A stretch of DNA of 64,000 nucleotides, from positions 95,214 through 159,213 of the forward strand of contig DATGDH010000139.1 of NCBI GenBank assembly GCA_035310985.1. Direction: 5' to 3'. Below are positions 8,034 to 64,000 of this stretch, in pieces (positions within the stretch are counted from its first letter, which is position 1; each line of letters begins with the position of its first letter). The DNA is from Burkholderiales bacterium. Its GTDB lineage: Bacteria > Pseudomonadota > Gammaproteobacteria > Burkholderiales > SG8-39. The notes under the pieces were generated by a model, which saw only the letters and a list, made by a program, of their open reading frames with translations, had not been told where the DNA came from and ran no database searches. A program made the position numbers and the translations under genes.

Positions 8034-8453
8034 ATGGCAACCACCATGCACGTCGACGTGGTCAGCGCGGAAGAATCCATCTTCTCGGGCGAGGCGGAGT
8101 TCGTCGTGCTGCCGGGCGAGGTCGGCGAGCTCGGCGTCTATCCGCGCCACACACCGCTCATCACCCGCATCCGTCCCGGCACGGTGCGCATCACTCCGGC
8201 GGGCGGTGGGGAGGAGCAGCTGATCTTCGTAGCCGGCGGCATTCTCGAGATCCAGCCGCAGGTCGTGACGGTGCTCGCCGACACCGCGATACGCGGCCAC
8301 GACCTGGACGAGGCCAAGGCGCTTGAAGCGCAGAAGCGCGCGGCCGAAGCGCGCGCGAAGGCGAAGGACAAGGAAGAAGTCGCGACCGTCGAAGCCGAGC
8401 TCTCGATGCTCGCGGCGCAGCTCGCGGCGATCCGCAAGCTGCGCAGGAAGTGA
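8034..8453 (+). CDS. atpC: F0F1 ATP synthase subunit epsilon
   Basis: 139 aa, [42 protein letters not shown]. The internal ATG at 8034 of track ORF 7941..8453 lies just after the atpD stop. Confidence 0.93.
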
Positions 8454-8456
8454 CGC

Positions 8457-10013
8457 TCAGGTGCGTGCGCGGGCCGCGGCGCCGCGGTAGCGCTCGCGCA
8501 GCAGGCGCTTGTACAGCTTTCCCGTAGGGTGGCGGGGCAGCTCGGGCTCGAAATCGACCGAGCGCGGGCACTTGATATGCGAGAGGTTGTCGCGGCAGTA
8601 GGCCATCAGTTCTGCCGCGAGCGCGGGACCGGCCTCGCGCCAGTCGGTCGGCTGCACGACCGCCTTTACCTCCTCGCCCAAGTCTTCGTTCGGCACGCCG
8701 AGCACGGCGACGTCCGCGACCTTCGGATGGGCGACGAGAAGATTCTCGACCTCCTGCGGGTAGACGTTCACCCCGCCGCTGATGATCATGTAGTCCTTGC
8801 GGTCCGTGAGGTAGAGGTAGCCTTCGGCGTCCAGGTGCCCGACGTCGCTAAGCGTCGACCAGCCCTCACGGCTGCGCGAGGCAGCGGTCTTCTTGGGGTC
8901 GTTGTGATACTCGAACGCGGGACCGTTCGCGAAATAAATGGTCCCCGTCTCGCCCGGCGGTAGCGGCCTGCCCTCGTCGTCAAGAATGCGCACTTCGCCC
9001 AGCAGCGCGCGACCGACCGTGCCCTTGTGCGCGAGCCACTCCTGCGAATTACAGGCAACGTAGCCGTTGCCCTCAGTGCCGGCGTAGTACTCGTACAGCA
9101 CGGGACCCCACCAGCGGATCATCTCCTCCTTCACCGGTACGGGACAGGGCGCGGCGGCGTGGATCGCGACTTTGAGCGAGCTTACGTCGTAGCGTGCTCG
9201 CACTTCGGCCGGAAGTTTCAGCATGCGCACGAACATGGTCGGCACCCACTGGCTGTGCGTGACGCGGTGCCGCTCGATGAGCGCCAGCGCTTCCTCGGCA
9301 TCGAAGTGCTCCATCAATACCGAGGTTCCTCCGCAACGCATGACCGTAATGTTGAAGCGCAGCGGCGCCGCGTGATAAAGGGGCGCGGGCGAGAGGTAGA
9401 CCGAGTCCGGGCCCAGGCCGTACAGCTTCCTGGCGAGCGCGAGTAGCGGCGTGGGGGCGTCGATCGCCTCGTCGAGAAGCTCGGTCTTGATGCCTTTGGG
9501 ACGACCCGTCGTGCCGGAAGAGTAAAGCATGTCGCGCCCCGCGCTTTGGTCGCCGATGCGAGCGCGCGGCTGCGCGCCCGCCGCCTCCTCCCAACGCCGG
9601 TAGCCGGGGAGCGCGCCGCCGACCGAAAGGCGCAGTGCGAGCTGCGGCACTCGCTCGACGAGCCCCGCCGCAGCTTCGGCGAGGCTCGCCGAGATAATGA
9701 ACGCCTTGGCACCGCAATCGCGCAGGATGTACTCGGCTTCCTGCAGCGCGAGCCGCGTGCTCATCGCGGTGAAGAGCAGGCCCGAACGCTGCGCGGCGAA
9801 GCAGATTTCGAAGTAGCGCGCATTGTTGTCCATCATGAGCGCGACGTGATCGCCGCGCGCCAGACCGCAGGCCCTGAACAACTGCGCACCCTGGTTGGAG
9901 CGCTCCTCGAGCTCGCGATAGGTGACCACCTCGCCGGAGCGCGCCATGACGTACGCCGGCTTGTCGGGCGTGCGTGCGGCGTGGTGGCAGGGATGGAGCA
10001 GGTCTGCGTCCAT
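8457..10013 (-). CDS. AMP-dependent acyl-CoA synthetase/ligase (ANL superfamily)
   Basis: AMP-binding motifs YSSGTTGRPKG, YYAGTEG, GDVG...DRKDYMIISGGVNVYP. The start at M17 (10013) of the track ORF is preferred because an upstream start would overlap the divergent gene. Its stop lies 3 nt from the atpC stop (convergent). Confidence 0.85.
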   Translation of the reverse strand: MDADLLHPCHHAARTPDKPAYVMARSGEVVTYRELEERSNQGAQLFRACGLARGDHVALMMDNNARYFEICFAAQRSGLLFTAMSTRLALQEAEYILRDCGAKAFIISASLAEAAAGLVERVPQLALRLSVGGALPGYRRWEEAAGAQPRARIGDQSAGRDMLYSSGTTGRPKGIKTELLDEAIDAPTPLLALARKLYGLGPDSVYLSPAPLYHAAPLRFNITVMRCGGTSVLMEHFDAEEALALIERHRVTHSQWVPTMFVRMLKLPAEVRARYDVSSLKVAIHAAAPCPVPVKEEMIRWWGPVLYEYYAGTEGNGYVACNSQEWLAHKGTVGRALLGEVRILDDEGRPLPPGETGTIYFANGPAFEYHNDPKKTAASRSREGWSTLSDVGHLDAEGYLYLTDRKDYMIISGGVNVYPQEVENLLVAHPKVADVAVLGVPNEDLGEEVKAVVQPTDWREAGPALAAELMAYCRDNLSHIKCPRSVDFEPELPRHPTGKLYKRLLRERYRGAAARART

Positions 10014-10050
10014 GGCTTGGCGTCGCGAGTGTTGCATAATCCCGGACACC

Positions 10051-11499
10051 ATGACGAACACTTTTGGAATTCTCTCCTACGGTGCCTACATCCCCCGGCG
10101 CCGGCTGCAACGCAAGGCGATCGCCGCGGCGAACACTTGGTTCAATCCGGCGCTGCGCGGGCTCGCCAAGGGCGAGCGCGCGATGGCCAACTGGGACGAG
10201 GACGCGGTCACCATGGCCGTCGAAGCGGCCCGCGACTGTCTCAGCGGCATGACAACCGTTACACCGGCCCAGCTGATGCTCGCCTCGACGACGCATCCCT
10301 ACGATGACAGGCAGAACGCAGGGATCGTGGCGACTGCGCTGCACTTGGGCTCCGCCCTGCGCGCCCTCGACGTGACCGGCAGCCAGCGCGCCGGCAGCTC
10401 GGCGCTTATGACCGCGCTTGCTACGGGCGCGAACGTCGTCGTCACGGCAGGCGAGCACCGGCTCGCCAAGGCGGCGAGCCCACAGGAAATGCATTACGGC
10501 GACGGCGCGGCGGCGCTGCTCGTCGGGCGCGGCGCGCCGATCGCGCGCCTGGTCGCCGCGCACAGCGAGACGGTGGACTTCGTGCACCAGTACCGGGGCC
10601 GCGACCGCGCGCACGACTACATGTGGGAGGAGCGGTGGATCCGCGACGAGGGCTACATGAAGATCGTGCCCGCGGCGCTCGCGACGCTTTTCAACGCGAG
10701 CGGCGCTTCCCCAGGGGCCGTGACGCACTTCTGCATGCCATGCACGCTATCGCGCGTTGCCGCCGGCGTCGCCAAGCGCGCCGGAATCGCCGAGAGCGCC
10801 CTGCGCGACAACCTCGCCGCGGTGTGCGGCGACACCGGCGCCGCGCATCCGCTGCTCATGCTCGCTCAGGCGCTCGAGGAGTCGAAGCCCGGCGACCGGA
10901 TCGTCGTCGCCGCGTTCGGCCAGGGCTGCGATGCGCTGCTGTTCGAGGTCACCGATGCCGTGCGCGAACTGCCCGCGCGCCGCGGGGTGCGGGGTGCGCT
11001 CGCCCGGCGCAAGGAAGAGACTAACTACGAGCGCTTTCTCGCGTTCAACGACCACATCGCGCTCGATCGCGGCATGCGCGCCGAGGTCGATCACGGCACG
11101 CCGCTCTCGACGCTGTACCGCAACCGCGAGATGGTCACCGGCCTCGTGGGCGGGCGCTGCCGCAACTGCGGCACGCTGCAATTCCCGCGCGGGCGCTACT
11201 GCGTCAACCCGAAGTGCAACGCGCTCGATTCGCAGGACGATCACCCGTTCTCCGAGGTGGGCGCGAAGGTGATGTCGTACACGGCCGACGCGCTCACCTA
11301 CAGTCCCGATCCGCCGGCCTACTACGGCATGATCCAGTTCGACGGAGGGGGACGCATGATGGCCGACTTCGCCGACGTCGACGATGGCAAGGTCGAGGTG
11401 GGCATGCCGATGCGCATGATGTTCCGCGTCAAGGAGCACGATGCTGCGCGCGGCTTCGTGCGATACTTTTGGAAGGCCGCACCCGCAGGTAACCAGTAG
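10051..11499 (+). CDS. Fusion protein: N-terminal HMG-CoA synthase/KAS-III-like thiolase-fold domain plus C-terminal DUF35 (Zn-ribbon plus OB-fold) domain
   Basis: 482 aa. The N-terminus, FGILSYGAYIPRRRL...DEDAVTMAVEAARDCL...STTHPY, resembles HMGCS. The C-terminus has the rubredoxin-like CRNCGTLQFPRGRYCVNPKC followed by an OB-fold-like region, as in DUF35 proteins. Internal ATG at 10051 of track ORF 9922..11499. Confidence 0.7.
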   Translation: MTNTFGILSYGAYIPRRRLQRKAIAAANTWFNPALRGLAKGERAMANWDEDAVTMAVEAARDCLSGMTTVTPAQLMLASTTHPYDDRQNAGIVATALHLGSALRALDVTGSQRAGSSALMTALATGANVVVTAGEHRLAKAASPQEMHYGDGAAALLVGRGAPIARLVAAHSETVDFVHQYRGRDRAHDYMWEERWIRDEGYMKIVPAALATLFNASGASPGAVTHFCMPCTLSRVAAGVAKRAGIAESALRDNLAAVCGDTGAAHPLLMLAQALEESKPGDRIVVAAFGQGCDALLFEVTDAVRELPARRGVRGALARRKEETNYERFLAFNDHIALDRGMRAEVDHGTPLSTLYRNREMVTGLVGGRCRNCGTLQFPRGRYCVNPKCNALDSQDDHPFSEVGAKVMSYTADALTYSPDPPAYYGMIQFDGGGRMMADFADVDDGKVEVGMPMRMMFRVKEHDAARGFVRYFWKAAPAGNQ

Positions 11500-11509
11500 G
11501 AGGTCCGAC

Positions 11510-12712
11510 ATGGCAATCGGAATCCGCGACAAGGTGGTGATCCTCGGCATGGGCTGCTCGAAGTTCGGAGAGCGCTGGGACCGCAATGCCGAGGACCTGA
11601 TGGTCGAAGCCTTCGAAGAAGGCTTGAAGGACGCCGGCATCGAGCGCAACCAGATCGAGGCGGCGTGGTTCGGCACCGCGATCGAGGAACAGCACGTCGG
11701 CAAGTCGGGCGTGCCTCTCGCGATGACGCTGCGCCTGCCCTATATCCCGGTGACGCGCGTCGAGAACTATTGCGCCACCGGCACCGAGGCATTCCGTGGC
11801 GCGGTGTATGCCGTGGCCTCCGGCGCGGTCGACATCGCGCTTGCGCTCGGCGTGGAAAAGCTCAAGGACACCGGCTACGGAGGCCTGCCGCAGCGCGGCC
11901 GCGGCGGCCTGAACAACTTCTTCTGGGCCAACATTTCGGCGCCCGGCTCGTTCGCCCAGCTCGCCGCGGCCTACCGCGCCAAGCACCGTGTCGACCCGAA
12001 AGACCTGAAACGCGCCATGGCGCACATCTCGGTGAAGAGTCACGACAACGGCGCGAAGAACCCGAAGGCGCACCTGAGGAATCGCATTACCGAGGAGGAC
12101 GTGCTGAACGCGCCGATGATCGCCGATCCGCTCGGGCTGTACGACTGCTGCGGCGTCTCGGACGGCTCGGCCTGCGCGATCGTCACCACGCCCGACATCG
12201 CGCGCGGCCTCGGCAAGAAAGACCTCGTTGCGGTGAAGGCGCTGCAGCTCGCGGTCTCGAACGGCCAGGAGGTGCAATACGACGAGTGGGACGGCTCGTA
12301 TTTCGCCACCACGCGCGTGGCCGCCAAGCGCGCTTACCGCGAGGCCGGCATCGACGACCCGAGAAAGCGCATCTCGATGTTCGACGTGCACGACTGCTTC
12401 TCGGTCACTGAGCTGGTGACCATGGAAGACCTCGGGATCTCCGACGAGGGCAAGGCGATCATGGACGTGCTGGACGGCTTCTACGACGCTTCCGGCAAGA
12501 TCCCGTGCCAGATCGATGGCGGGCTGAAATGCTTCGGCCATCCGATCGGCGCCTCGGGCCTGCGCATGCTCTACGAGATGTACCTGCAGCTTTCGGGCCG
12601 CGCCGGCGAGCGCCAGCGGTCCGAGCCGGTGCTCGGCATGACGCACAACCTCGGCGGCTTCCCGAGCCAAAACGTTTCATCGGTCACGATCGTCGGCAGC
12701 TACGGCGCCTGA
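11510..12712 (+). CDS. Thiolase-like protein, SCP-x / lipid-transfer (Ltp) type
   Basis: 400 aa, ILGMGCSKFGERW, nucleophile context VENYCATGTEAF, C-terminal GHPIGASG and NLGG. GGAGG SD upstream of the ATG at 11510. Confidence 0.85.
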   Translation: MAIGIRDKVVILGMGCSKFGERWDRNAEDLMVEAFEEGLKDAGIERNQIEAAWFGTAIEEQHVGKSGVPLAMTLRLPYIPVTRVENYCATGTEAFRGAVYAVASGAVDIALALGVEKLKDTGYGGLPQRGRGGLNNFFWANISAPGSFAQLAAAYRAKHRVDPKDLKRAMAHISVKSHDNGAKNPKAHLRNRITEEDVLNAPMIADPLGLYDCCGVSDGSACAIVTTPDIARGLGKKDLVAVKALQLAVSNGQEVQYDEWDGSYFATTRVAAKRAYREAGIDDPRKRISMFDVHDCFSVTELVTMEDLGISDEGKAIMDVLDGFYDASGKIPCQIDGGLKCFGHPIGASGLRMLYEMYLQLSGRAGERQRSEPVLGMTHNLGGFPSQNVSSVTIVGSYGA

Positions 12713-12745
12713 GCGCCTGCCGAAGCGCGCGAGCGGGGATCGGCC

Positions 12746-13414
12746 CTAGAGGAGGTGGCTAGTCCGATCCGCGCGCTCGCCGCCGCGGTCCTTGTGTTCG
12801 TCGATGGGGTAAGCCCACACCACGTAACGCCCGGGGCCGCCCGCGCGCAGCGCGTCGAAGGGAAAACAGGTCACGAGCGTCAGCCTGGCGGGGCCCTCCT
12901 GCGCTGCGACCCAGGCGTCGCTTCGGTCGAGTACGCGCATCCGGCGCACCGTATACGCGTGGCGCGCGCCGTCGGGCGTTTGGACGATGATCTTCGTTCC
13001 AAGCGCGAGCTTGCGCAGGAACGCGAAGTGCGTGTCGCGATGCCCGCTGATCACGCTGTTCCCGGACGCCCCGGGCAGCGCGGTTCCGGCGAGGTGCCCT
13101 GGGCCGAATGCCATCGCCACGCCGTCGGCACCCTCGAGGACGTAGCGCTCGATGCCGAGCGACGGTACCGACAGGCGCGCGACCGGCCAGGTGTCGGCCC
13201 AGGGCCAGGGCCTCGCGTGCGTCTCGCCCGCGAGCGTTCGCTGCCAGGCTTGCGCGATGAGTGCTTGAGCGATCCAGGCCTTGGCCTGGATCCACGCGCC
13301 GCGCGCGAACTGCCAGCCGCCCGTTGCGACGAGCAACGCGACGAGGACAAGACGCAGGCGCCCGACGCTTTTGCTGCGAGTCCCTGCATTCGATTCGGGC
13401 CAGGCACATTCCAC
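12746..13414 (-). CDS. Sortase of the proteobacterial dedicated sortase system type
   Basis: N-terminal TM (LRLVLVALLVATGGW), catalytic His context VISGHRDTHF, Cys TLVTCFP, Arg GRYVVWA. There is no in-frame ATG. The GTG at 13414 is the first plausible start downstream of the upstream gene's stop (13441). The start is uncertain. Confidence 0.8.
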   Translation of the reverse strand: MECAWPESNAGTRSKSVGRLRLVLVALLVATGGWQFARGAWIQAKAWIAQALIAQAWQRTLAGETHARPWPWADTWPVARLSVPSLGIERYVLEGADGVAMAFGPGHLAGTALPGASGNSVISGHRDTHFAFLRKLALGTKIIVQTPDGARHAYTVRRMRVLDRSDAWVAAQEGPARLTLVTCFPFDALRAGGPGRYVVWAYPIDEHKDRGGERADRTSHLL

Positions 13415-13440
13415 GCCCAGGCACAGCTCCTGGTCGCGTT

Positions 13441-15489
13441 TCACCCAAACCTCCGGCGCCAGCCGACCAAAATTGCGGCGAGCAGGAGAAACAGCATCCC
13501 GCTCAACAGCGCGAAACGGCTGTCGGTGCCGGTCTGCGGCAGTTCGCCGAACACCTTGTCGTACTCCCAGCCTTCCGGCAGGTTGGTCGGCAGATCGGCG
13601 CGCGCGAGCGGCGCGTCCGCGGGCCGCGCCGACGCGCGATCGACCGCGACGAAGCTCGTGTAGCGGGTCACCAGGCGGTGTGCGCGCGCGAGCGCGATCA
13701 CCTGCTCGCGCACCGCGTCGGGAGGCGCACCTTCGCGCAGTGAGTCCATGAGCGAGGCCACCTTGGCGCGCGCCCAGAGCGAATCGATGCCGCTGCCCTG
13801 CGCGCCAGCCGCGAGCGGCACACGCGCTTCCCACACCCGCCCCGCGCGCACTCCGCTCACGCGCAGCTCGCCTTCGAGGCGTTCGAGGGAAGCGCTCACT
13901 ACGAGCGGCTCGCCGGAATAGAGGTCGGGCACGCGCGCGGGCCAGGCTTCGACGTGCGCCGCCTCGGGCCATTGCAGCGTGATCCCCTTCAGCACGGGCG
14001 CTTCGAGCTTGGTGAAGAGCTCGGACATCCTCGCGCCGACCTCGTCGACGCGGCCGATATAGGTGAACGTGCCGCGCCCGAGCTCCGCCGCCTTGCGCAT
14101 GAAGTGGCTGTTTGGCGCCGAGCCGATTCCCACGGTAAAGAGGCGCGAGTCGCCCAGCCGCGCCTGGATCAGGCGAAACAGCTCCTCTTCGTTGCCGACC
14201 GCGCCGTCGGTGAGGAAGACCACCTGTCTCACGCCGGAGCCCGCATCGCCGCCGTTCAAGGCGAGCTTCAGGGCGGAGGCCATCTCGGTCCCGCCGCCGG
14301 CCTCGAGGCTTCGCACCCAGCCGATCGCGCGCCGCACTTGGGCGGTCGCGGCCGGGCGAGCCTCGGCGAACAGCGCCCTCGCGGTCGAGTTGAATTCGAT
14401 GACGTTGAAGCGGTCTTGCGGTTTCAGGCGTTCGAGCGCGAGCGCGAGCGCCTCGCGCGCCTGGCGGATCGACGCGCCGGCCATCGAGCCCGAGGTGTCG
14501 AGCACGAAGATCACTTCGCGCGGAAGCGGCGCCTCGTGCGCCGCCGCCGATGGCATCAGCATCAGCAGCGCGTAGTGGCGCCCGCCCTGCGACTGCGTGA
14601 ACCAGGCGAGCCGGGGCGCCGCGTCGGGGCGCGGCGCCCAGCGCAGCACGAAATCGCGATTGGCCGGAGTGCTGCCTTCGGCGAGCGTGATTTCGCGCTG
14701 CCCCTCGCCGAGCGTTTTGACGTCCACCTGGTGGTAGGGGCTCGAAACCTCGGCCAGGGGCATGCCTGCATCCAGCTCGACGCGGATCGAAACCGGGTTG
14801 GCGGGCGCAGGCCCCTCCTGCGGACGCAGCACGACGGGCGTGATGCGCGCCGCGTCCGTCACGCCGTGCGGGATATAGCGCGGTCCGACCACCATTGGAA
14901 AGCGCAGCGAAAAGCGGCCGTCCCGGTAGCGCAGTGTCTCCAGATATTCGAGTTCGACCACAACGGTATCGTGCGGACCGATGTTCGCCACGCTGGTGGT
15001 GAATATGTTGGGCCTTTCCTGGTCGAGCAGCGCCGCACGGCTGCCCTGCGCCCGCGCCGCTGCGTAGGTCTTCTGGGCGGCCGCGCGCTCTTGGATCTCT
15101 CCTTCTATGGTGCGCTCGCCGATGCGCAGGCGCAGGCGGTCGACGGCCGAGTTCTCGGGCAGCGGGAACACGTAGACGCCCTCGTACCAGCCCTCACCAG
15201 GATTGCGGAAGGTCTGCACCACGCGCGCGCGCACCACCATGCCCGAGACCTGGAACGCCACCGCAGTCGACTGCAGCGGCGCTTCGAGCGCATCGCCGCC
15301 GGCACGCGGGCGCAGGAGCAGTGTGCCCTCGCTCGGCGCATCGGCTGCCCGCGCCTGGCTCGCGAACAGCAGCGTCACGCCGGCGAGCGCAATGGCGGTC
15401 ACGATGCCCAAGGCGGCGGCGAGCGCCACTGAGGCGATGAGATCGAGCGCGATCCGACCGGCTAGGGTTCTTTTTGCGGGCTTGCTCAC
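13441..15489 (-). CDS. Sortase target: secreted VIT-domain plus von Willebrand factor A-domain protein with a C-terminal LPQTG sorting signal
   Basis: VIT-like N-terminal region, vWA MIDAS VIFVLDTSGSMAG, and C-terminus LPQTG-TDSRFALLSGMLFLLLAAILVGW-RRRFG. The GTG at 15489 is preceded by GGAGG (4-nt spacer) and is preferred over the ATG at 15588. Confidence 0.85.
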   Translation of the reverse strand: MSKPAKRTLAGRIALDLIASVALAAALGIVTAIALAGVTLLFASQARAADAPSEGTLLLRPRAGGDALEAPLQSTAVAFQVSGMVVRARVVQTFRNPGEGWYEGVYVFPLPENSAVDRLRLRIGERTIEGEIQERAAAQKTYAAARAQGSRAALLDQERPNIFTTSVANIGPHDTVVVELEYLETLRYRDGRFSLRFPMVVGPRYIPHGVTDAARITPVVLRPQEGPAPANPVSIRVELDAGMPLAEVSSPYHQVDVKTLGEGQREITLAEGSTPANRDFVLRWAPRPDAAPRLAWFTQSQGGRHYALLMLMPSAAAHEAPLPREVIFVLDTSGSMAGASIRQAREALALALERLKPQDRFNVIEFNSTARALFAEARPAATAQVRRAIGWVRSLEAGGGTEMASALKLALNGGDAGSGVRQVVFLTDGAVGNEEELFRLIQARLGDSRLFTVGIGSAPNSHFMRKAAELGRGTFTYIGRVDEVGARMSELFTKLEAPVLKGITLQWPEAAHVEAWPARVPDLYSGEPLVVSASLERLEGELRVSGVRAGRVWEARVPLAAGAQGSGIDSLWARAKVASLMDSLREGAPPDAVREQVIALARAHRLVTRYTSFVAVDRASARPADAPLARADLPTNLPEGWEYDKVFGELPQTGTDSRFALLSGMLFLLLAAILVGWRRRFG
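13444..13542 (-). other. C-terminal cell-wall-type sorting signal (LPQTG motif at 13528..13542, hydrophobic span, RRRFG tail)
   Basis: Direct translation of the last 33 codons of the vWA protein. Confidence 0.8.
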
Positions 15490-15580
15490 GGCGCCTCCAT
15501 CGTTGGTGCGTGCTGGAAGCCGATTACAGGCGCGCGTCGGGGCGGGCGCGCGGCGCGCAAAGGGCGCACCGCTGAGCAAT

Positions 15581-15598
15581 TGTGGCAATCCTGTGGCA
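15581..15598. promoter_or_regulatory. Tandem direct repeat TGTGGCA-N4-TGTGGCA (11-bp phasing) in the divergent promoter region; candidate OmpR-family response-regulator site
   Basis: TGTGGCA at 15581-15587 and 15592-15598. A TATATT -10-like hexamer lies at 15626-15631, 7 nt before the RR ATG. Confidence 0.35.
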
Positions 15599-15638
15599 GC
15601 GGGCGGAGAACGCGCAGCGATCGGCTATATTCGATGTC

Positions 15639-16328
15639 ATGTCACGCCGCATCGCCATCGTCGAGGACGACCCTGCCATACGCGCCAACTACGCCGCCGC
15701 GCTCGGCCGCTACGGCTACGAGGTGGCCACGTACGGCGGCCGCGCCGAGGCGCTCGCCGCGATGAAGTCGCGCCTACCCGACCTCGCCATCATCGACATT
15801 GGCCTGGGGGAGGACGCGGACGGCGGCTTCGCGCTGTGCCGCGAGTTGCGCGCGCTCTCTGCCGCGCTGCCGATCATCTTCCTGACCGCGCGCGACAGCG
15901 ACTTCGACGTGGTCGCCGGCCTGCGTCTGGGTGCCGACGACTATCTCACCAAGGACGTGAGCTTGCCGCACCTCATGGCGCGCATCGCGGCGCTGTTTCG
16001 CCGCGCCGATCTCGCGCGCGAGCCGCCTGCGGCCGAGGAGCGCTTCGAGCGCGGCGCGCTCGCGCTCGACCTGAAGCGCTTCAGCGTAAGCTGGCAGGGT
16101 CGACCCGTCGCGCTCACGCTGACGGAGTTCTGGATGGTGCACGCGCTCGCCAAGTTCCCGGGCCACGTCAAGAATCGCGACCAGCTGATGCGCGAAGCAA
16201 ACTTGGTCGTCGACGACGCCACGGTCACTTCGCACGTGAAGCGCATACGGCACAAGTTCCTCGCCGTCGATGCCGCGTTCGACCGAATCGACACGGTCTA
16301 CGGCATGGGCTACCGCTGGAAGGCCTGA
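15639..16328 (+). CDS. OmpR/PhoB-family response regulator (sortase-system associated)
   Basis: 229 aa with a receiver domain (RIAIVEDDP...DLAIIDIGL) and a winged-helix C-terminus (...RIDTVYGMGYRWK). Confidence 0.9.
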   Translation: MSRRIAIVEDDPAIRANYAAALGRYGYEVATYGGRAEALAAMKSRLPDLAIIDIGLGEDADGGFALCRELRALSAALPIIFLTARDSDFDVVAGLRLGADDYLTKDVSLPHLMARIAALFRRADLAREPPAAEERFERGALALDLKRFSVSWQGRPVALTLTEFWMVHALAKFPGHVKNRDQLMREANLVVDDATVTSHVKRIRHKFLAVDAAFDRIDTVYGMGYRWKA

Positions 16329-16335
16329 GGCTGCA

Positions 16336-17982
16336 ATGCGCGTGCGCATTACCCTGCGGGTCAAGCTCGCGCTGGTCTCGCTCGCCATGCTGGCGCTGCC
16401 CTGGGCAGGATGGCTCTACGTCGGCGAGATGGAGCGCTTCCTGCTCGAGGGACAGGAGCGTGCGCTGCTCGCCACCGCGCGGGCGGTCGCGACCGCGCTG
16501 CACGACCGCCCGCAGCTCCTTGCCGCGGTTCCGGAGCGCGACGATGCGCTGCGACGCGAGGCCGAGGCCGAGCTGCAGCGGCTGACGCAGCAAAGCGGGG
16601 GCGCCGGCGGCACCGAGGCGGACGTACCGCTGGCGCGCGAGGATGCGGTCGCGGCGGGCCCCGCGCGGGAAGAGATCGCCGCCATCCTGCGCGGAGTTGA
16701 GCGTGCCAGCTCGCGCATCTGGGTGGTGAACCGGCGCTACCAGGTGCTCGCGCTCGCCGGCAGTCTGAGGCAGCCCGTACTGCCGGGGCAGGACGGTCTA
16801 CTGCGCTCCTGGTGGCACCGGGCAATCGGCTGGCTGATCCCGGGGCCGACGGAGGACTTCGCCGAAGCTTTGCCCGACGACGTGCTCGCCACCAGTCGCG
16901 ACATCACGGCCGCCCTGCAGGGAACGCCGGGCACGCGCATGCGCCGCACCCCGGACGGCCGCGCCGTGGTCCTCTCCTCCGCCTATCCCATCTGGTCCGG
17001 CGACGAGGTCGCCGGCGCGGTGGTCGCCGAGGAGACGACCAACCCGATCGTCTCGCTGCGCAGCGCTGCGCTCGAGCGCCTGCTCGCGCTCACGCTGGCG
17101 GCGTTCGCGGGCGTCGGTGCGCTGCTGATCGCCTACGCGACGCGGCTGTCGCAGCGTATCCGCCGGCTGCGCGACGAAGCCGAGTCGGCGATCGACGCGC
17201 GCGGCCGCATTACGCGCCTCGCGGCCGGCTCCGATGCCGGCGACGAGATCGGCGACCTGTCGCGCAGCTTCTCGGCCATGCTGGCGCGGCTCGCGCAGCA
17301 CCATGCGTATCTCGAGAGCATGGCCGATCGTCTTTCGCACGAGCTGCGCACGCCGATCGCGGTGGTGCGCTCGTCGCTGGAGAACCTGCAGCTCGCCGCC
17401 GGGCCCGCCGAGCGGCGCCTGTACGTCGAGCGCGCCGAGCAAGGGCTCGCGCGGCTGAACACCATCCTGCAACGCATGACGGAAGCCTCGCGGCTGGAGC
17501 AGAGCCTGCGCGCGTCCGCGCGCGAGCGCTACGACCTGGTGCCGGTGGTACGCGGTTGCGTCGAGGGTTACCGCCTGGCGTACCCGCAGGCGCGCTTCGC
17601 GCTCGAGCTGCCCGAGGAGCGAATGGATGTCGAGGGCTCGCCGGACCTGGCCGCGCAGCTGCTCGACAAGCTGGTGGAGAACGCCGTGGATTTCGCGACC
17701 CCGGGCAGCCCGATCCACGTCTCGCTGGAAGAGGAACGGGGTATGGCGCTGCTCAAGGTGATCGACCGCGGACCCCTGCTGCCGCCCGAGACGCAGGGCC
17801 GGCTGTTCGATTCGATGATCTCGCTGCGCGGCGAGCGGCGCGGCGCCGTGCCGCACCTCGGCCTGGGGCTGTACGTGGCACGCCTGATCGCCGAGTTCCA
17901 CGGCGGCACGATCGCGGCGGACAACCTGCCCGCCGGCGACGGCGTCGCGATCACGGTGCGCCTGCCGATTGCGTGGCGCTAG
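16336..17982 (+). CDS. Sensor histidine kinase (sortase-system associated)
   Basis: 548 aa with an N-terminal TM, a periplasmic region, a second TM, H-box DRLSHELRTPIAVV, and N/G boxes (KLVENAVDF, GLGLYVA). Starts 7 nt after the RR stop. Confidence 0.88.
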   Translation: MRVRITLRVKLALVSLAMLALPWAGWLYVGEMERFLLEGQERALLATARAVATALHDRPQLLAAVPERDDALRREAEAELQRLTQQSGGAGGTEADVPLAREDAVAAGPAREEIAAILRGVERASSRIWVVNRRYQVLALAGSLRQPVLPGQDGLLRSWWHRAIGWLIPGPTEDFAEALPDDVLATSRDITAALQGTPGTRMRRTPDGRAVVLSSAYPIWSGDEVAGAVVAEETTNPIVSLRSAALERLLALTLAAFAGVGALLIAYATRLSQRIRRLRDEAESAIDARGRITRLAAGSDAGDEIGDLSRSFSAMLARLAQHHAYLESMADRLSHELRTPIAVVRSSLENLQLAAGPAERRLYVERAEQGLARLNTILQRMTEASRLEQSLRASARERYDLVPVVRGCVEGYRLAYPQARFALELPEERMDVEGSPDLAAQLLDKLVENAVDFATPGSPIHVSLEEERGMALLKVIDRGPLLPPETQGRLFDSMISLRGERRGAVPHLGLGLYVARLIAEFHGGTIAADNLPAGDGVAITVRLPIAWR

Positions 17983-19654: not shown

Positions 19655-20878
19655 ATGGCAGGCCCCTTATCGCATATCCGTGTTCTCGACCTCTCGCGCG
19701 TGCTCGCGGCGCCATGGGCAGGACAGAACCTCGCCGATCTTGGCGCCGAAGTCATCAAGGTCGAACGTCCGCACAAAGGCGATGATTCCCGCGCTTTCGG
19801 CCCGCCGTGGCTGAAGGACTCCGCCGGCAAGGACACCGGGGAGTCCGCGTACTTCGCCTGCGCCAACCGCGGCAAGAAGTCGATTACCGTCAACCTGGCT
19901 GCTGCGGACGGTCAGCAGATAGTGCGCGAGCTGGCGGCAAAGTGCGACGTGCTGCTGGAGAACTACAAGCCCGGTGACCTCGGGCGCTACGGCCTGGGCT
20001 ACGACGATTTGAAGCACGTGAATCCGCGGCTGGTGTACTGCTCGGTTACCGGCTTCGGTCACACCGGCCCCTATCGGGATCGACCGGGCTACGACTTCAT
20101 GATCCAGGGCATGGGCGGGCTGATGAGCGTTACTGGCGAGCGCGACGAGCTACCGGGCGGCGGGCCGCAAAAAGCGGGCATCCCGATCGCCGACCTCATC
20201 ACCGGGATGTACGCGACGGTCGCCGTGTGCGCGGCGCTGGCACACCGCGCCGAGACCGGCGTTGGCCAGCACCTCGACCTGGCCCTGCTTGACTCGCAGG
20301 TGGCGGTGCTGGCGAACCAGGGCGCGAACTATCTCGCGACCGGAATCTCACCGCGTCGCCTGGGAAATGCGCACCCGAATATCGTGCCCTACCAGACCTT
20401 CAAGACCGCCGACGGAGACGTGATCCTCGCCTGCGGGAACGATAATCTGTTTCGCAAGTTCTGCGAGGTGGCGCAGTGCCAGCACCTCGCCACAGATGAG
20501 CGCTTCGCGACCAATGGCAAGCGGGTCGAGAATCGTGCCGCGCTGACGCAGATCCTGAGCGAAGTCTTCCGCGCGCGTACGACCCGTGACTGGACCGAGA
20601 CGCTGGAAATGGCAGGCGTACCGAACGGCCCGATCAATACGCTCGAGCAAGTATTCCGCGAGCCGCAAGCGGTCGCGCGGGGACTGAAGATCGAAATCCC
20701 GCATCCACTTGCCGGAAAGGTGGCACTGGTGCGAAGCCCGATGCGTTTCTCGCAAACGCCGCTCGAGCACAATGTCCCCCCGCCCCTTTTGGGGCAGCAT
20801 ACCGACGAAATTCTGCGCGGTCTGCTCCGCCGGAGCGACGTCGATATAGAGAAGCTGCGCGCCGACGGCGCGATCTGA
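19655..20878 (+). CDS. Family III CoA-transferase (CaiB/BaiF family)
   Basis: 407 aa, PLSHIRVLDLSRVLAAPWAGQNLADLGAEVIKVE...NYKPG...GYDFMIQGMGGLMS typical of the family. Confidence 0.88.
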   Translation: MAGPLSHIRVLDLSRVLAAPWAGQNLADLGAEVIKVERPHKGDDSRAFGPPWLKDSAGKDTGESAYFACANRGKKSITVNLAAADGQQIVRELAAKCDVLLENYKPGDLGRYGLGYDDLKHVNPRLVYCSVTGFGHTGPYRDRPGYDFMIQGMGGLMSVTGERDELPGGGPQKAGIPIADLITGMYATVAVCAALAHRAETGVGQHLDLALLDSQVAVLANQGANYLATGISPRRLGNAHPNIVPYQTFKTADGDVILACGNDNLFRKFCEVAQCQHLATDERFATNGKRVENRAALTQILSEVFRARTTRDWTETLEMAGVPNGPINTLEQVFREPQAVARGLKIEIPHPLAGKVALVRSPMRFSQTPLEHNVPPPLLGQHTDEILRGLLRRSDVDIEKLRADGAI

Positions 20879-20893
20879 GCTGCTGTCGGACGC

Positions 20894-22087
20894 TTATGCG
20901 GCCGCGCCCGAGGCGACCAGCGCCTCGATCTCGCCCGCGGAGAAGTCGAACTCGGCGAGCACCTCGCGCGTGTGCTGGCCGTAGGTAGGTGCCGGGCGCT
21001 TCACCGCGCCCGGCGTGGCGGAGAGTTTGATCGGCAGCCCGAGCGCCCGCGTCCTGCCCGCCTTCGGGTGCTCGAGCTCGACCACCATGTCGCGCGCCCC
21101 GGTCTGCGGGTCGGCGAGCATGTCGCCGATCGAATTGATCGGGCCGCAGGGCACGCCCTCTGCCTCGAGCATCTCGATCCACTCGCGCACCGTGCGCTGC
21201 TCGAGCTTGGCATTGACGAGCGGCACCAGCGCATCGAGATTATTCATGCGATCGCTGTTCGCGCGAAAGCGCTCGTCGGCAAGCCACTCGGGCGCCTCCA
21301 GCACGCGCGCCAGACGCTCCCAGTTCGGCTGGTTGGCGCCGCCGATGGTGAGCCAGCCGTCGCGCGCCCGGAAAGCCTGGTAGGGGGCCGAGAGCAGATG
21401 CGCCGAGCCGATCGGGCCGGGCGACTGCCCGGTGGCGAAGAAGATCGCCGATTGCCAGTAGGTCTGCTGGATGCCGGCCTCGTAGAGCGAGGTGTCCACC
21501 AGCTGGCCCTCGCCGCTCTTCAGGCGGTGCACATAGGCCGAAACGATGCCGAGCGCCGCGAGGATGCCGCCGTTGATGTCGCAGATCGGGTTGCCCGACT
21601 TGACCGGCGGGCGACCCGGTTCCCCCGTGATCGCCATCAGGCCGGACGCGCCTTGGGCGACGAGGTCGAAGCCGCCCTTGTCGGCGTAGGGCCCGGTGCG
21701 CCCGTATCCGGAGATCGAGCAGTAGATGAGCGCGGGATTGAGCGGCTTCAGCGCGTCGTAGCCCAGGCCGAGCTTCTCCATCGTGCCCTTGCGGTAGTTC
21801 TCGGTGAGGACGTCGACCCGCCCGACCATGCGCTTGAGCGCGTCGCGCGCTGCGGGCAGCTTGAGATTCAGCGCAATGCCGCGCTTGTTGCGGTTCATCG
21901 CCATGAAAGCGGCCGACTCGCCGTTCACCGAAGGCCGGTTCATGGCGCGCGTATCGTCGCCGCCCGGCATCTTCTCGACCTTGATGACGTCGGCGCCGAG
22001 ATCGGCGAGCAGCATGCCGCAGGTCGGCCCGGCCATGATCTGCGCGAGCTCGAGTACTTTGAGGCCGGCGAGCGGACCCGCACTCAT
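20894..22087 (-). CDS. Family III CoA-transferase (CaiB/BaiF family), second copy
   Basis: 397 aa, GPLAGLKVLELAQIMAGPTCGMLLADLGADVIKVE...GGFDLVAQGASGLM. Confidence 0.88.
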   Translation of the reverse strand: MSAGPLAGLKVLELAQIMAGPTCGMLLADLGADVIKVEKMPGGDDTRAMNRPSVNGESAAFMAMNRNKRGIALNLKLPAARDALKRMVGRVDVLTENYRKGTMEKLGLGYDALKPLNPALIYCSISGYGRTGPYADKGGFDLVAQGASGLMAITGEPGRPPVKSGNPICDINGGILAALGIVSAYVHRLKSGEGQLVDTSLYEAGIQQTYWQSAIFFATGQSPGPIGSAHLLSAPYQAFRARDGWLTIGGANQPNWERLARVLEAPEWLADERFRANSDRMNNLDALVPLVNAKLEQRTVREWIEMLEAEGVPCGPINSIGDMLADPQTGARDMVVELEHPKAGRTRALGLPIKLSATPGAVKRPAPTYGQHTREVLAEFDFSAGEIEALVASGAAA

Positions 22088-29403: not shown

Positions 29404-30882
<1,479 letters not shown>

Positions 30883-30929: not shown

Positions 30930-32066
30930 ATGAATCCGCTCCTTTTCGCGCCGATCACCCTTCGCAGAGTAACCGCGCGCAACAGGGCCGTCATCTCACC
31001 GATGTGCACCTATTCGGCGGCGGACGGCATGGCGCAGGACTGGCACCTGGTGCACCTGGGCAAGTTCGCCCTGGGCGGCGCCGGCATCGTGTTCGTCGAG
31101 GCGACCGCAGTCGAGGCGCGCGGCCGCATCACGCACGGCTGCCTCGGCATCTGGTCCGATGCGCACGCGCGCGCGCTCGGGCGTATCGCGCCGTTTCTCA
31201 AGGCGCACGGCGCGCTGCCCGCGATCCAGCTCGCGCACGCGGGACGAAAGGCGAGCATGCAGCGTCCCTGGTTTGGCAACGGCCCCCTCGGACCCGAGGA
31301 CGCGGCGCGCGGCGACCGGTCCTGGCAGATCGTCGGCCCGACCGCCGAGCCCGCGGCGGAAGGCTGGCTCGCGCCGCACGCCATGACGCGCGTCGACATC
31401 GACGAGGTCGTCGGCGCCTTCGCCGCCGCGGCGCGGCGCGCGCACGCAGCGGGCTTCGATATCGTCGAGCTGCACGGCGCGCACGGTTACCTGATCCACA
31501 GCTTCCTTTCGCCGTTGTCCAACACCCGCAGCGACGGCTACGGCGGCGCGCTCGGCGGGCGAATGCGCCTCGCGCTCGAGGTGGTCGACGCGGTGCGCGC
31601 GGCCTGGCCGGCGGACAAGCCCCTCTTCTTTCGCATCTCGTCGGTCGACGGCGTCGGCGGCCCCGGCTGGAAGATCGAGGACTCGATCGAGCTCGCGCGC
31701 GCGCTGAAGGCGCATGGCGTCGACGTGATCGACTGTTCCTCGGGCGGTATCTCGGGCCCGGTGACTTCGGCCATGGTGCCGCGCGAGCTCGGCTTTCAGG
31801 TGCCGTATGCGGCCGCCGTGCGCCGCGAGGCGGCCATCGCCACGCAGGCGGTCGGGCTGATCCTCGATGGGCCGCAGGCCGAGGCGATCCTGCAATCCGG
31901 AGCGGCTGACCTCGTCGCGGTGGCGCGCGAGGCGCTGGTCGATCCGTTTTGGGCGCATCACGCGGCGCGCGCGCTCGGCGTCGACGCCGATTTCGGCGGC
32001 TGGCCGGAACAGTACGGCTGGTGGCTGAAACGCCGTGCGAAGCTGCTCGCGGCCATCGGCCGCTAG
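30930..32066 (+). CDS. NADH:flavin oxidoreductase, Old Yellow Enzyme family (YqjM/NamA-like)
   Basis: 378 aa, LFAPITLRRVTARNRAVISPMCTYSA...HLGKFALGGAG...IQLAHAGRKAS...ELHGAHGYLIHSFLSP. Confidence 0.9.
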   Translation: MNPLLFAPITLRRVTARNRAVISPMCTYSAADGMAQDWHLVHLGKFALGGAGIVFVEATAVEARGRITHGCLGIWSDAHARALGRIAPFLKAHGALPAIQLAHAGRKASMQRPWFGNGPLGPEDAARGDRSWQIVGPTAEPAAEGWLAPHAMTRVDIDEVVGAFAAAARRAHAAGFDIVELHGAHGYLIHSFLSPLSNTRSDGYGGALGGRMRLALEVVDAVRAAWPADKPLFFRISSVDGVGGPGWKIEDSIELARALKAHGVDVIDCSSGGISGPVTSAMVPRELGFQVPYAAAVRREAAIATQAVGLILDGPQAEAILQSGAADLVAVAREALVDPFWAHHAARALGVDADFGGWPEQYGWWLKRRAKLLAAIGR

Positions 32067-32151
32067 CTACGAACCAAAGTCTTCGGTTCACTCTGCATCG
32101 TTATCGGTCTCATACAATAAGCGGATTTAAGTACTCCCTGATCAACTTTGT

Positions 32152-32484
32152 ATGAGCTGGGCAGAATTTGTTCTTTGGCTAACCTACGGTTTTTCGTTCG
32201 GCGCAGTAATACTTGTAAATCTGATTCTCTATTCGACGATTCTTCGTCCGCCGGTTAAAGGCGCGTCGCCGACGGAGCAAATACGCACCTTTGTATTGCG
32301 CCTTCCATTCGCTGTGGTTGGTATCGTCAGTCTTATGCCTCTACGGCCTCTTCGTCTTGCTTATGACCAGCATGAATTGGCGGGAGCCATCATTTTCCTT
32401 TGCTTCGTGGTGTTGACGGTTGTTATTGGTCTGAAAGTCTTGCTTCCGCGCTTCGTTACCATCAAGACAATGACCGACGACTAA
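32152..32484 (+). CDS. Hypothetical small membrane protein (3 predicted TM helices) in the low-GC islet
   Basis: 110-aa ORF with three hydrophobic ~20-aa spans and AT-rich codon usage unlike the flanks. I recognise no family. Confidence 0.45.
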   Translation: MSWAEFVLWLTYGFSFGAVILVNLILYSTILRPPVKGASPTEQIRTFVLRLPFAVVGIVSLMPLRPLRLAYDQHELAGAIIFLCFVVLTVVIGLKVLLPRFVTIKTMTDD

Positions 32485-32513
32485 CGCACCCTCATCTGCG
32501 CGAGAAACTGTAC

Positions 32514-32801
32514 TTGGAGCAATTGCTATTGGCTGTTGGTTATGGCTGGATGACTGGTAGCGCGCTTTTCTTGTTGAGTCTCTTCGTAAGGTTTCCTCGG
32601 GTGAATGGTCGGAGTGGATGGTTGTACCGACTGGTTCTTCTGATACCAGTCCCCGTCGTCCTCGTTGGGCTGGCTTTTATCGGAGACATCCTGTTCAAGT
32701 ACAAACGGATGGGAGTGGGCACTACCTATGTAGAAGCGGGTCTCGCTGCGGTTGTTGTATTCGCGCTTTGTTCGCGTGCACTACGAAATCGACAAAGGTG
32801 A
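32514..32801 (+). CDS. Hypothetical small membrane protein (3 predicted TM helices) in the low-GC islet
   Basis: The 3' part of track ORF 32400..32801 lies downstream of the preceding ORF's stop. The TTG at 32514 keeps the first hydrophobic helix intact (alternative ATG at 32550). The start is uncertain. Confidence 0.35.
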   Translation: MEQLLLAVGYGWMTGSALFLLSLFVRFPRVNGRSGWLYRLVLLIPVPVVLVGLAFIGDILFKYKRMGVGTTYVEAGLAAVVVFALCSRALRNRQR

Positions 32802-32976
32802 ATATTTGCTTCATTCGGGGAGCCATCTCGTTCGTTGAATTGCGGCACGCCTGCGTAGCCAACTCGTAGCCTCGCAGGATTTGGCAACGCTGCCATTCGA
32901 ATTTGCATCGCTACATCGAGAGATGGCAGGCGTCGCACGTCGTTAACTTGACAAGCAGCAACTCTCACTTCCGCGC

Positions 32977-33561
32977 CTAAAAGCCCGAGCCGGGCTGCTT
33001 CAGGAACTCGAGCTCTTCGGGCGTGCTCCGTCGCCCGAGTGCTTCGTTGCGGTGGGGAAAGCGGCCGAAGCGCGCGATGATCTCGTGGTGCCGCGCTGCG
33101 TACTGGTACACGTCATTCGTTTCCTCGAATTCCTCGAGCGGCCGCATCAGGCCGAGGCACAGCAACTGGTCCTCCAGCGCCTCGCTGTGCTCGAACGGCA
33201 GGTAGGTGAACATCCGCTCGACAGGCAGCATTTCCCGGTCGTAGCCCATTGCGAGCGCGTGGCGCGCCGCGTCGAGCGCGCGACCATCGCTCGCGAAGGC
33301 GCGTGCGCTGCCGCGAAACATGTTGCGCGGAAACTGGTCGAGCAGCACGATGAGCGCGAGGCAGTCGCCGGACTCGTCCTGCCAGCGCGCTAGGTCTCCG
33401 TGCGCGGCTGCCTCGTACAATGCGAGGAAGCGCTCGCGGATCGCGGCGTCGAACGCCGCGTCCTTGCTGAACCATTCCTTGCGCCGCTTGCCGTACTCGC
33501 TTTTGTTGCCGAACCAGAAGCTCAAGACCTGGCCGGTGCGAGGGTCTTTTGTGGGTCGCAT
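32977..33561 (-). CDS. DUF924-family protein
   Basis: [11 protein letters not shown] and [15 protein letters not shown] signatures. The start at 33561 is preferred because 33609 would overlap the divergent gene's start. Confidence 0.8.
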
Positions 33562-33601
33562 CGTCGAATGCTGCAATAATTCGCCGCCCGGAGCATATGC
33601 C

Positions 33602-35623
<2,022 letters not shown>

Positions 35624-62613: not shown

Positions 62614-62782
62614 GGGAGTTAGCCCGAAATCGCGGGCCTAGGCACCGGACGCGAGAGAGAGGGCATTATAGGGGTTCTGGCCCTGTGGAAAATTCACTAG
62701 ACACTAGCTAGGCTTGTTGCTAGCATTTAACGCAATTTCTACGTATTGCGCCTAACACGCCGGAGCGCAAGGGAAAATAACG

Positions 62783-63859: not shown

Positions 63860-64000
63860 GCTCGATTCGCATCAACCTGCTCCCGCACCGCGACGAGCGA
63901 CGCAAGCGCGCGCGCACCCATTTCGCGGTGCTCGGCGCGATGACGTTTGTGCTCGGCCTGGTCATTGTCGGAGCCGTGCATATCGTGAACGCGCAGCGCA
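63856..64000 (+). CDS. pilN: Type IV pilus assembly protein PilN, 3'-truncated by the window edge
   Basis: The ATG at 63856 overlaps the pilM stop (ATGA). Translation MSSIRINLLPHRDERRKRARTHFAVLGAMTFVLGLVIVGAVH matches the PilN N-terminus (INLLP motif plus TM). Confidence 0.8.
   Translation, partial: MSSIRINLLPHRDERRKRARTHFAVLGAMTFVLGLVIVGAVHIVNAQR

Follow-up and report, generated by a model that had tools for sequence, protein, structure and literature searches.

This work concerns a 64,000-nucleotide stretch of contig DATGDH010000139.1 from a Burkholderiales bacterium (assembly GCA_035310985.1), referred to throughout as the window, and the three genes that it holds between positions 8457 and 12712. 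The central gene (10051..11499, forward strand) encodes a 482-amino-acid protein in which a PhlA-like pseudo-3-hydroxy-3-methylglutaryl-CoA (HMG-CoA) synthase (HMGCS) is fused to a DUF35 module. It is followed on the same strand by the gene for a 400-amino-acid thiolase of the SCP2/archaeal type (11510..12712), and a gene for a FadD-like acyl-CoA synthetase of the ANL family (8457..10013, reverse strand) is divergent from it. The arrangement and motifs of the first two genes suggest that an active thiolase is encoded together with a catalytically dead partner.

The fusion and thiolase genes are closely linked. The thiolase gene begins 11 nucleotides downstream of the fusion gene, and the TAG stop codon of the fusion gene overlaps the AGGAGG ribosome-binding site of the thiolase gene (11497..11509, forward strand; ...CAG TAG GAGG TCCGAC ATG...), which is consistent with a tightly coupled operon junction. 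An ATP synthase operon lies upstream of the three-gene region and a dedicated sortase system lies downstream on the other strand, so the functional unit comprises three genes at most. No paralogue of the fusion or of the thiolase was found elsewhere in the window. A promoter and terminator scan of positions 8300-12900 returned nothing exceeding chance, and the 37-bp divergent intergenic region (10014..10050) between the start codons of the synthetase (ligase) and fusion genes holds no consensus sigma-70 promoter. The DNA is GC-rich, and a spurious antisense open reading frame (ORF) of 551 amino acids (9073-10728, reverse strand) spans the ligase/fusion junction. Further antisense ORFs of 318 and 413 amino acids, longer than some real genes, lie opposite the fusion and thiolase genes.

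Three Pfam domains, ACP_syn_III_C, zf-ChsH2 and OB_ChsH2_C (PF08541, PF12172 and PF01796), are present in the one fusion protein. Its thiolase-fold HMGCS/PhlA-like domain covers about residues 1-335 (10051..11055), as delimited by phmmer searches of PDB chains, NCBIfam models and Foldseek. The DUF35 module consists of a rubredoxin-like zinc ribbon at about residues 365-391 (11143..11223; zf-ChsH2, 1.1e-5 at residues 365-389), whose cysteines C370, C373, C384 and C389 were verified at the codon level, and of an OB-fold at about residues 395-478 (11233..11484; OB_ChsH2_C, 9.5e-11). In the phmmer searches, the N-terminal 310-335 residues match PhlA-type subunits (9skh_A, 3.8e-26; 5m3k_A, 9.4e-25), archaeal HMGCS (6esq_I, 3.7e-17) and MucA (9vbo_A, 2.6e-11), whereas residues 360-478 match the DUF35 subunit 6esq_E (4.1e-8), PhlB (5m3k_B, 4.3e-5) and the DUF35 domain of ChsH2 (6ok1_B, 0.0023). 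The protein falls short of the cutoffs of the HMGCS family models, scoring 159.5 bits versus 244 for PRK04262 (1.1e-46), 101.1 versus 353.35 for TIGR00748 and 29 versus 360.35 for TIGR01835. An AlphaFold2 model of the fusion, which is of moderate quality (mean pLDDT of 63.6) and was built from a shallow alignment of sequences with 73-92% identity, has PhlA, CsATase, archaeal HMGCS and MucA as its top Foldseek matches, with FabH enzymes ranking lower; we drew no residue-level claims from it. By these sequence comparisons, the N-terminal half of the fusion matches the dead PhlA-type subunits better than it matches active HMGCS.

Indeed, all four residues of the Glu-Cys-His-Asn catalytic tetrad of HMGCS are replaced in the fusion, by Thr, Gln, Pro and Asp. 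In the phmmer alignments, T80 (ACG, 10288-10290) stands opposite Glu82 of archaeal HMGCS (6esq_I) and Cys83 of PhlA, and Q112 (CAG, 10384-10386) stands opposite Cys114 of the archaeal enzyme and Gly115 of PhlA. P230 (10738-10740) occupies the place of archaeal His238, which is Gln in PhlA, and D261 (10831-10833) that of Asn270, which is Asp in PhlA. This alignment is independently anchored, because Cys83 and Gly115 of PhlA were assigned from its crystal structure (PMC6392133) and E82, C114, H238 and N270 constitute the tetrad mutated by Liao et al. (PMC12960953), and both sets of numbers agree with ours. A preliminary description of this locus had proposed a 482-amino-acid HMGCS-like/DUF35 fusion at 10051..11499 that lacks the catalytic Glu/Cys/His triad, naming T80 and Q112 as the substituted residues. 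The fusion is borne out by Pfam, by the PDB searches and by full-length relatives, the codon positions given for T80 and Q112 were exact, and alignment to solved structures together with Foldseek extends the loss from the triad to the whole tetrad. The possibility that the triad is placed elsewhere in the domain was rejected, given that the published PhlA assignments are reproduced and that the Glu and Cys positions are never occupied by Glu or Cys in 109 relatives.

These 109 full-length relatives, which are 32-92% identical to the fusion, reveal which parts of the protein are maintained through evolution. The Glu position, never Glu, is Thr in 88 of them; the Cys position, never Cys, is highly variable (Leu in 49, Gln in 17, Arg in 9, and others); the similarly variable His position is His in a single relative; and the Asn position is most often Asp (45) or Asn (23). 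At least 90% conservation is found in 35 other columns of the alignment, and the conserved columns include R18, R182, R195, Y326 and R357. A D49-E50-D51 motif is conserved in the family and is common to HMGCS and PhlA, a Y472-x-W474-K475 motif is near-invariant at the end of the OB-fold, and the four zinc-ligand cysteines are kept in 94-102 of the relatives. Median identity to the query is 40% for the HMGS-like part and 41% for the DUF35 part, and 31% for the linker. The combination of retained columns and zinc ligands with a variable former active site fits a pseudoenzyme under selection for a noncatalytic role.

The family is large and widely distributed. A word-indexed search yielded 6,309 relatives at E ≤ 1e-5, and an exhaustive HMMER search of 50%-identity representatives yielded 3,176 at E ≤ 1e-3 and 564 at E ≤ 1e-30. 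Many of the representatives are full-length fusions of 465-495 amino acids, which reach down to about 32% identity, and homologues of 479-484 amino acids open with a common MxNxxGILSYGAY N-terminus. Because hundreds of diverse representatives share this architecture and length, we rejected the possibility that the fusion arose as an artefact of assembly or of a frameshift that joins two genes. The closest relatives, from metagenome-assembled genomes of Burkholderiales, carry the names “OB-fold domain-containing protein” or “hydroxymethylglutaryl-CoA synthase family protein.” Fused proteins without the tetrad are routinely misannotated as “HMG-CoA synthase” or “3-oxoacyl-ACP synthase III.” Among 448 genomic stretches that encode a fusion relative, the best 80 form the basis of the locus counts given below. 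Fusion loci occur in Beta-, Alpha- and Gammaproteobacteria (Aromatoleum, Variovorax, Sneathiella, Camelimonas, Rhodoblastus and Nitratireductor), and tblastn also detected them on large plasmids of Sphingobium, Novosphingobium, Rhodococcus, Mycobacterium avium, Azoarcus and Paraburkholderia. Pseudomonas is absent from the best 80 loci, from the cluster members of 10 representatives and from the plasmid tblastn matches.

The partner protein carries the Pfam domains Thiolase_N and Thiolase_C, and over residues 1-398 of its 400 it passes the NCBIfam model NF004810/PRK06157 “acetyl-CoA acetyltransferase” with 690.7 bits versus a cutoff of 403. Its nearest PDB chains are archaeal-type acetoacetyl-CoA thiolases (7yvy_A, 3.4e-54; 6esq_A, 6.7e-51), followed by SCP2-type thiolases and BbsB (7pxp_C, 8.8e-39), and its matches to PhlC (3.9e-17) and Ltp2 (6ok1_A, 6.9e-17) are far weaker. 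The NCBIfam equivalog cutoff for BbsB is missed by a wide interval (132 bits versus 750). The catalytic codons were verified for Cys88 (11771-11773), His294-Asp-Cys296-Phe (12389-12400) and Gly-His344-Pro (12539-12541), and all of these residues are invariant in 53 of 53 aligned partner thiolases. The protein is a thiolase proper rather than an aldolase or a Friedel-Crafts acylase, because its HDCF motif is intact while Ltp2 and Sal carry Tyr in this motif and PhlC and MucB lack HDxF. The intact nucleophile that the preliminary description had attributed to the gene following the fusion is thus a conserved property of the partner thiolases.

In nearly every related locus with enough downstream sequence, the thiolase is encoded directly downstream of the fusion, so the survey of gene-neighborhood conservation that had been suggested for this locus yields a near-universal pairing. 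Gene calling in the relatives relied on a codon-position GC score to separate genes from antisense ORFs, which resolved most cases. Thiolase presence was scored by tblastn because some of the thiolases were displaced by an antisense ORF cluster (c18). No thiolase homologue (E ≤ 1e-20, alignment over 250 amino acids) was detected in the available flank of five loci on Rhizomicrobium/Hyphomicrobiaceae contigs (L067, L068, L075, L076 and L079), which are possible exceptions to the pairing. The partner thiolase is always more conserved than the fusion, with 72-98% versus 56-93% identity to the window proteins, and the range for the thiolase spans alpha-, beta- and gammaproteobacterial loci.

The surroundings of the pair are more diverse. 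At least one beta-oxidation-type neighbor, defined as an acyl-CoA dehydrogenase, enoyl-CoA hydratase, short-chain dehydrogenase/reductase (SDR), MaoC hydratase, ANL ligase or CoA-transferase, occurs in 52 of the 70 loci in which the fusion ORF was called, a count that is suggestive rather than statistical. By type, there are ANL ligases in 30 loci, acyl-CoA dehydrogenases in 26, SDRs and enoyl-CoA hydratases in 19 each, family III CoA-transferases in 11, acyl-CoA carboxylase subunits in 9 (Sneathiella), FadH-like reductases in 8 and MaoC hydratases in 6. An annotated operon of Variovorax paradoxus has the order SDR, MaoC, fusion, thiolase, acyl-CoA dehydrogenase and CoA-transferase and lies beside a TTT binding protein, and Azoarcus KH32C has an annotated set of fusion, thiolase and acetyl-CoA hydrolase/transferase. 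The recurring combination of SDR, MaoC and SCP2-type thiolase genes calls to mind the MFE-2/SCPx scheme by which methyl-branched and bulky substrates are handled, a resemblance that serves as a lead and not as a result. In Sneathiella, the pair adjoins genes for the alpha and beta subunits of an acyl-CoA carboxylase, an acyl-CoA dehydrogenase, an enoyl-CoA hydratase, a ligase, a FadH-like dienoyl-CoA reductase and a DinB/MDMPI-like protein, a set that recalls the catabolism of acyclic terpenes or branched-chain acids; in eight loci of this genus (L036, L039, L043, L048, L051, L052, L058 and L062), neighbors lie about 5 kb upstream of the fusion.

The divergent gene of the window encodes an acyl-CoA synthetase of the ANL family, as originally proposed, with the Pfam domains AMP-binding (1.7e-67) and AMP-binding_C. 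Its best NCBIfam models, FadD4 (628 bits versus 850) and PRK13390, are under cutoff and it passes no specific cutoff; the nearest solved structures are FadD13, FadD8 and FadD5. The ORF is open as far as a GTG at 10061 (8457..10061, reverse strand), but the N-termini of six orthologues, together with a codon check, indicate that the start is likely the ATG at 10011-10013 (MDADLLHP...). Only 6 of the 80 loci (L001, L002, L014, L017, L020 and L026) have a divergent ligase orthologue of at least 76% identity, whereas loci whose fusion is about 85% identical to that of the window (L003, L006, L007 and L030) carry other genes in its place. The synthetase-thiolase unit envisaged in the preliminary description is therefore not a conserved feature of the family. 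A second ANL-family ligase of the window (29455-30822, reverse strand) is 33% identical to the one adjacent to the fusion.

Characterized systems provide precedents for a dead HMGS-like protein in a thiolase complex. Krishna et al. (2010) described DUF35 fused to thiolase-superfamily domains and considered phlABC to combine an active with an inactive superfamily member, PhlA being inactive. Pavkov-Keller et al. (2018; PMC6392133) found that PhlA lacks the Cys and the Glu, that the substrate is touched by PhlC residues only, and that PhlB clamps the PhlA and PhlC dimers together. More recently, Liao et al. (Nat Commun 2026; PMC12960953) solved MucABC and reported that 1,001 of 1,030 mined bacterial HMGS/ACAT/DUF35 loci are without polyketide synthase (PKS) or nonribosomal peptide synthetase (NRPS) genes. 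These authors also assayed PfACAT/HMGS-DUF35 of Pseudomonas fluorescens, in which HMGS and DUF35 are fused and the tetrad is absent while the ACAT keeps Cys, HDxF and GHx. This complex forms neither acetoacetyl-CoA nor HMG-CoA from acetyl-CoA and carries out thiolytic cleavage of acetoacetyl-CoA, which is nearly abolished by H294Y in the HDxF motif, and changing the archaeal tetrad to PhlA-like residues likewise abolishes HMG-CoA formation (PMC12960953). PhlC and MucB are both without HDxF (PMC12960953), and MucB alone forms insoluble aggregates and is inactive after solubilization. Thus, the dead HMGS-like part is noncatalytic in PhlACB, MucABC and PfACAT/HMGS-DUF35, and it is needed for an active complex in the first two.

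The window locus is like that of PfACAT/HMGS-DUF35 in having a fused HMGS-DUF35 without the tetrad, an adjacent thiolase with Cys/HDxF/GHx and no PKS or NRPS neighbors, and it fits the mining criteria of Liao et al. in that PF08541, PF00108 and PF01796 are colocalized. It differs in its host, a Burkholderiales-like betaproteobacterium, and in its divergent FadD-like ligase. The common numbering of His294 with the P. fluorescens ACAT is weak support for the likeness, because Ltp2 also has residue 294 at this place. The arrangement belongs to a family that has already been described and partly characterized, and the window locus is unusual in nothing beyond its membership. The earlier statement that no characterized member of the fusion exists is accordingly out of date, and of the findings named in advance as fatal to the proposal, that of an already characterized family is the one that was made, while neither an artefact nor a displaced triad was found.

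Other relatives share some of these modules. All three are homologous to those of the archaeal thiolase/HMGCS/DUF35 complex (6ESQ; 6.7e-51, 3.7e-17 and 4.1e-8), in which the thiolase also keeps Cys, HDxF and GH, but in which HMGCS is active through Glu82, Cys114, His238 and Asn270 and the complex channels acetoacetyl-CoA into HMG-CoA. In the Friedel-Crafts acyltransferases PhlACB (PpATase, 5M3K/5MG5), CsATase (9SKH) and MucABC (SmaATase, 9VBO/9VBT), the dead HMGS-like subunit is the best match in sequence and fold to the N-terminal half of the fusion, and a DUF35 clamp is present with all chemistry residing in the thiolase-like subunit. Unlike the pair in the window, these enzymes consist of three separate polypeptides and belong to PKS or NRPS-PKS clusters, and PhlC and MucB acylate small-molecule acceptors. 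In the archaeal, Phl and Muc complexes, DUF35 forms a subunit of its own that clamps an HMGS-like dimer to a thiolase dimer, whereas it is fused in the window. BbsAB (7PXP), Ltp2-ChsH2(DUF35) and Sal-Shy(DUF35) each have an SCP2-type enzyme that relies on a DUF35 partner in CoA-ester catabolism, and BbsB keeps the HDxF chemistry. However, these systems are without an HMGS-like module, as their DUF35 stands alone in BbsA and is joined to a MaoC hydratase in ChsH2 and Shy, and the active sites of Ltp2 and Sal are Tyr-based.

On the basis of the sequence features and of these precedents, we consider it probable (roughly 75%) that the fusion and thiolase genes make up an operon of two genes whose products assemble into a heteromeric, degradative 3-ketoacyl-CoA thiolase, the fusion being a pseudoenzyme partner. 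In such a complex, catalysis would be confined to the 400-amino-acid thiolase, in which Cys88 would accept the acyl group as nucleophile, alongside His294 of HDCF and His344 of GHP. By analogy with the archaeal, Phl and Muc complexes, the fusion would bind the thiolase dimer and perform no chemistry of its own. As in the homologous complexes, it may be needed for the folding, solubility, assembly and activity of the thiolase, and it may contribute to the wall of an interfacial CoA-binding chamber. The noncatalytic scaffold role that was initially suggested for the HMGCS-like domain is supported in this way by PhlACB, MucABC and PfACAT/HMGS-DUF35. The P. fluorescens assay and the gene contexts point to the thiolytic direction, in which the CoA-dependent cleavage of a 3-ketoacyl-CoA would conclude a beta-oxidation-type route, and in the window organism the acyl-CoA may come from the divergent FadD-like ligase. 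The complex itself, its reaction direction and the link with the ligase are thus suggested by analogy and gene context.

Several observations weigh against this proposal. The structural model of the fusion is of moderate quality only, as its mean pLDDT indicates, and the likeness to the P. fluorescens complex is one of shared architecture and motifs, from which we infer homology. The ligase is the sole metabolically related neighbor in the window, and its pairing with the fusion is confined to the closest relatives. The neighborhood counts have no formal background control, and the 80 loci are phylogenetically non-independent. Moreover, acetoacetyl-CoA, the in vitro substrate of the P. fluorescens complex, is generic and says little on the physiological role.

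Each of the other explanations draws on one of the related systems. If the HMGS-like domain were competent by virtue of residues elsewhere, the pair could make acetoacetyl-CoA and HMG-CoA as the archaeal mevalonate complex does, and the clear homology of the domain to archaeal HMGCS as well as the closeness of the thiolase to archaeal-type acetoacetyl-CoA thiolases would be accounted for. This is scarcely credible, however, in light of scores far under the HMGCS cutoffs, of substitutions at all four tetrad positions with the Glu and Cys positions never restored among the relatives, and of an alignment that matches the published Cys83 and Gly115 of PhlA. In addition, the PhlA-like archaeal mutant makes no HMG-CoA and the P. 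fluorescens complex makes neither product (PMC12960953), and the 24 kb of the window that were examined hold no mevalonate-pathway genes. The greater similarity of the fusion N-terminal half to PhlA-type subunits, together with the Asp at the Asn position and a GDTGAA-like motif common to both, would instead be expected if the pair were a CoA-independent or acetyl-CoA-dependent Friedel-Crafts C-acyltransferase of the PhlACB/MucABC type that acts on a small-molecule acceptor. We regard such an activity as very unlikely, because in PhlC and MucB the His of HDxF is replaced and the acceptor pockets are remodeled, whereas HDCF is invariant in the partner thiolases, and because the match to PhlC (3.9e-17) is weak beside those to archaeal-type thiolases (about 1e-51 to 1e-54). 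The neighbors, namely the ATP synthase operon, the ligase, the sortase system and CoA-transferases, include no PKS or NRPS genes, and the fused complex of P. fluorescens acted as a thiolase, unlike the Phl and Muc enzymes (PMC12960953).

A retro-aldolase of the Ltp2/Sal type, which would cleave a 3-hydroxyacyl-CoA side chain with the help of a DUF35 partner, is suggested by the resemblance of the fusion DUF35 to that of ChsH2 (in Pfam domain names and in the match to 6ok1_B) and by the MaoC hydratases and SDRs beside some family members. Yet Ltp2 carries Y294-DHF and Tyr344 and Sal carries Y302-DCY (PMC12329534), whereas the partner thiolase has the canonical SCP2-thiolase set of Cys88, H294-DCF and G-H344-P. 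Ltp2 is also a distant match, and the DUF35 of the Ltp2 and Sal systems is fused to a MaoC hydratase rather than to an HMGS-like domain, so we find this activity highly improbable. An explanation of a different kind was offered by Liao et al. for their own complex (PMC12960953), namely that it is an evolutionary intermediate in decay that serves no defined physiological role. The lack of a fixed pathway context across loci, and the absence from the window of any neighboring beta-oxidation gene apart from the ligase, speak for this explanation, and there is a small chance that it applies here. Against this stand two intact and tightly coupled genes, a thiolase that remains highly identical across three proteobacterial classes with invariant catalytic motifs, a fusion that retains many invariant residues and its zinc ligands, thousands of family members, and many loci that place the pair within complete beta-oxidation gene sets. 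The intact coupled genes, the conservation, the family size and the beta-oxidation settings suggest long-term purifying selection for function, and the strong conservation of the partner thiolase, together with the usual beta-oxidation setting of the pair, speaks for an actual function in catabolism and against an intermediate that has fallen idle.

A more speculative view, which we consider doubtful, is that the family is no evolutionary leftover and instead provides the thiolase dedicated to one or more as yet unassigned beta-oxidation routes, in which bulky or methyl-branched acids (isoprenoid-, alicyclic- or steroid-like) would be degraded. It would thereby be a bacterial counterpart of the peroxisomal MFE-2/SCPx system. 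The HMGS-like pocket, emptied of its catalytic residues, and DUF35 would then form an acyl- or CoA-binding chamber that sets substrate specificity, and in the window organism the divergent ligase would define the entry substrate. More generally, the locus would exemplify a pseudoenzyme kept because an active, paralogue-like enzyme needs it as a structural partner. A common thiolase/HMGS/DUF35 chassis serves to make mevalonate precursors in archaea and to acylate antibiotics in Pseudomonas and Streptococcus, and the fused form without the tetrad is by far the commonest bacterial version, as indicated by the 1,001 of 1,030 mined loci that are of the uncharacterized type (Liao et al.) and by the thousands of proteins recovered here.

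Other features of the window lie outside the three-gene region. The dedicated sortase system directly downstream of the thiolase gene (12746-17982) is of the proteobacterial kind and complete. It comprises a class GN sortase (TIGR03784, 215.8 bits versus 158), a VIT/vWA “marine proteobacterial sortase target protein” with an LPQTG signal (TIGR03788, 751 versus 552) and a dedicated response regulator (TIGR03787, 374 versus 336). Its histidine kinase is below cutoff (TIGR03785, 518 versus 612) and covers model positions 259-703 only; its ORF start may lie further upstream, or its N-terminus may be shorter than usual. Beyond this system are two convergent family III CoA-transferase genes (19655-20878, forward strand, and 20894-22087, reverse strand), whose products are nearest to succinate--glutarate CoA-transferase and are both under cutoff (492 and 351 bits versus 750). 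Only in the closest relatives does a homologue of the first recur, some 7 kb downstream of the fusion, which probably reflects shared synteny and not a functional link.

The G+C content is markedly lower (0.586) at positions 32001-34000 and 62001-64000 than in the rest of the window, where it is about 0.63-0.72. The sole Rfam match in the window is to the anti-hemB small RNA of Burkholderia (RF02837; 46907-46998, forward strand; 80.1 bits versus a gathering score of 49.5), which is consistent with a Burkholderiales origin.

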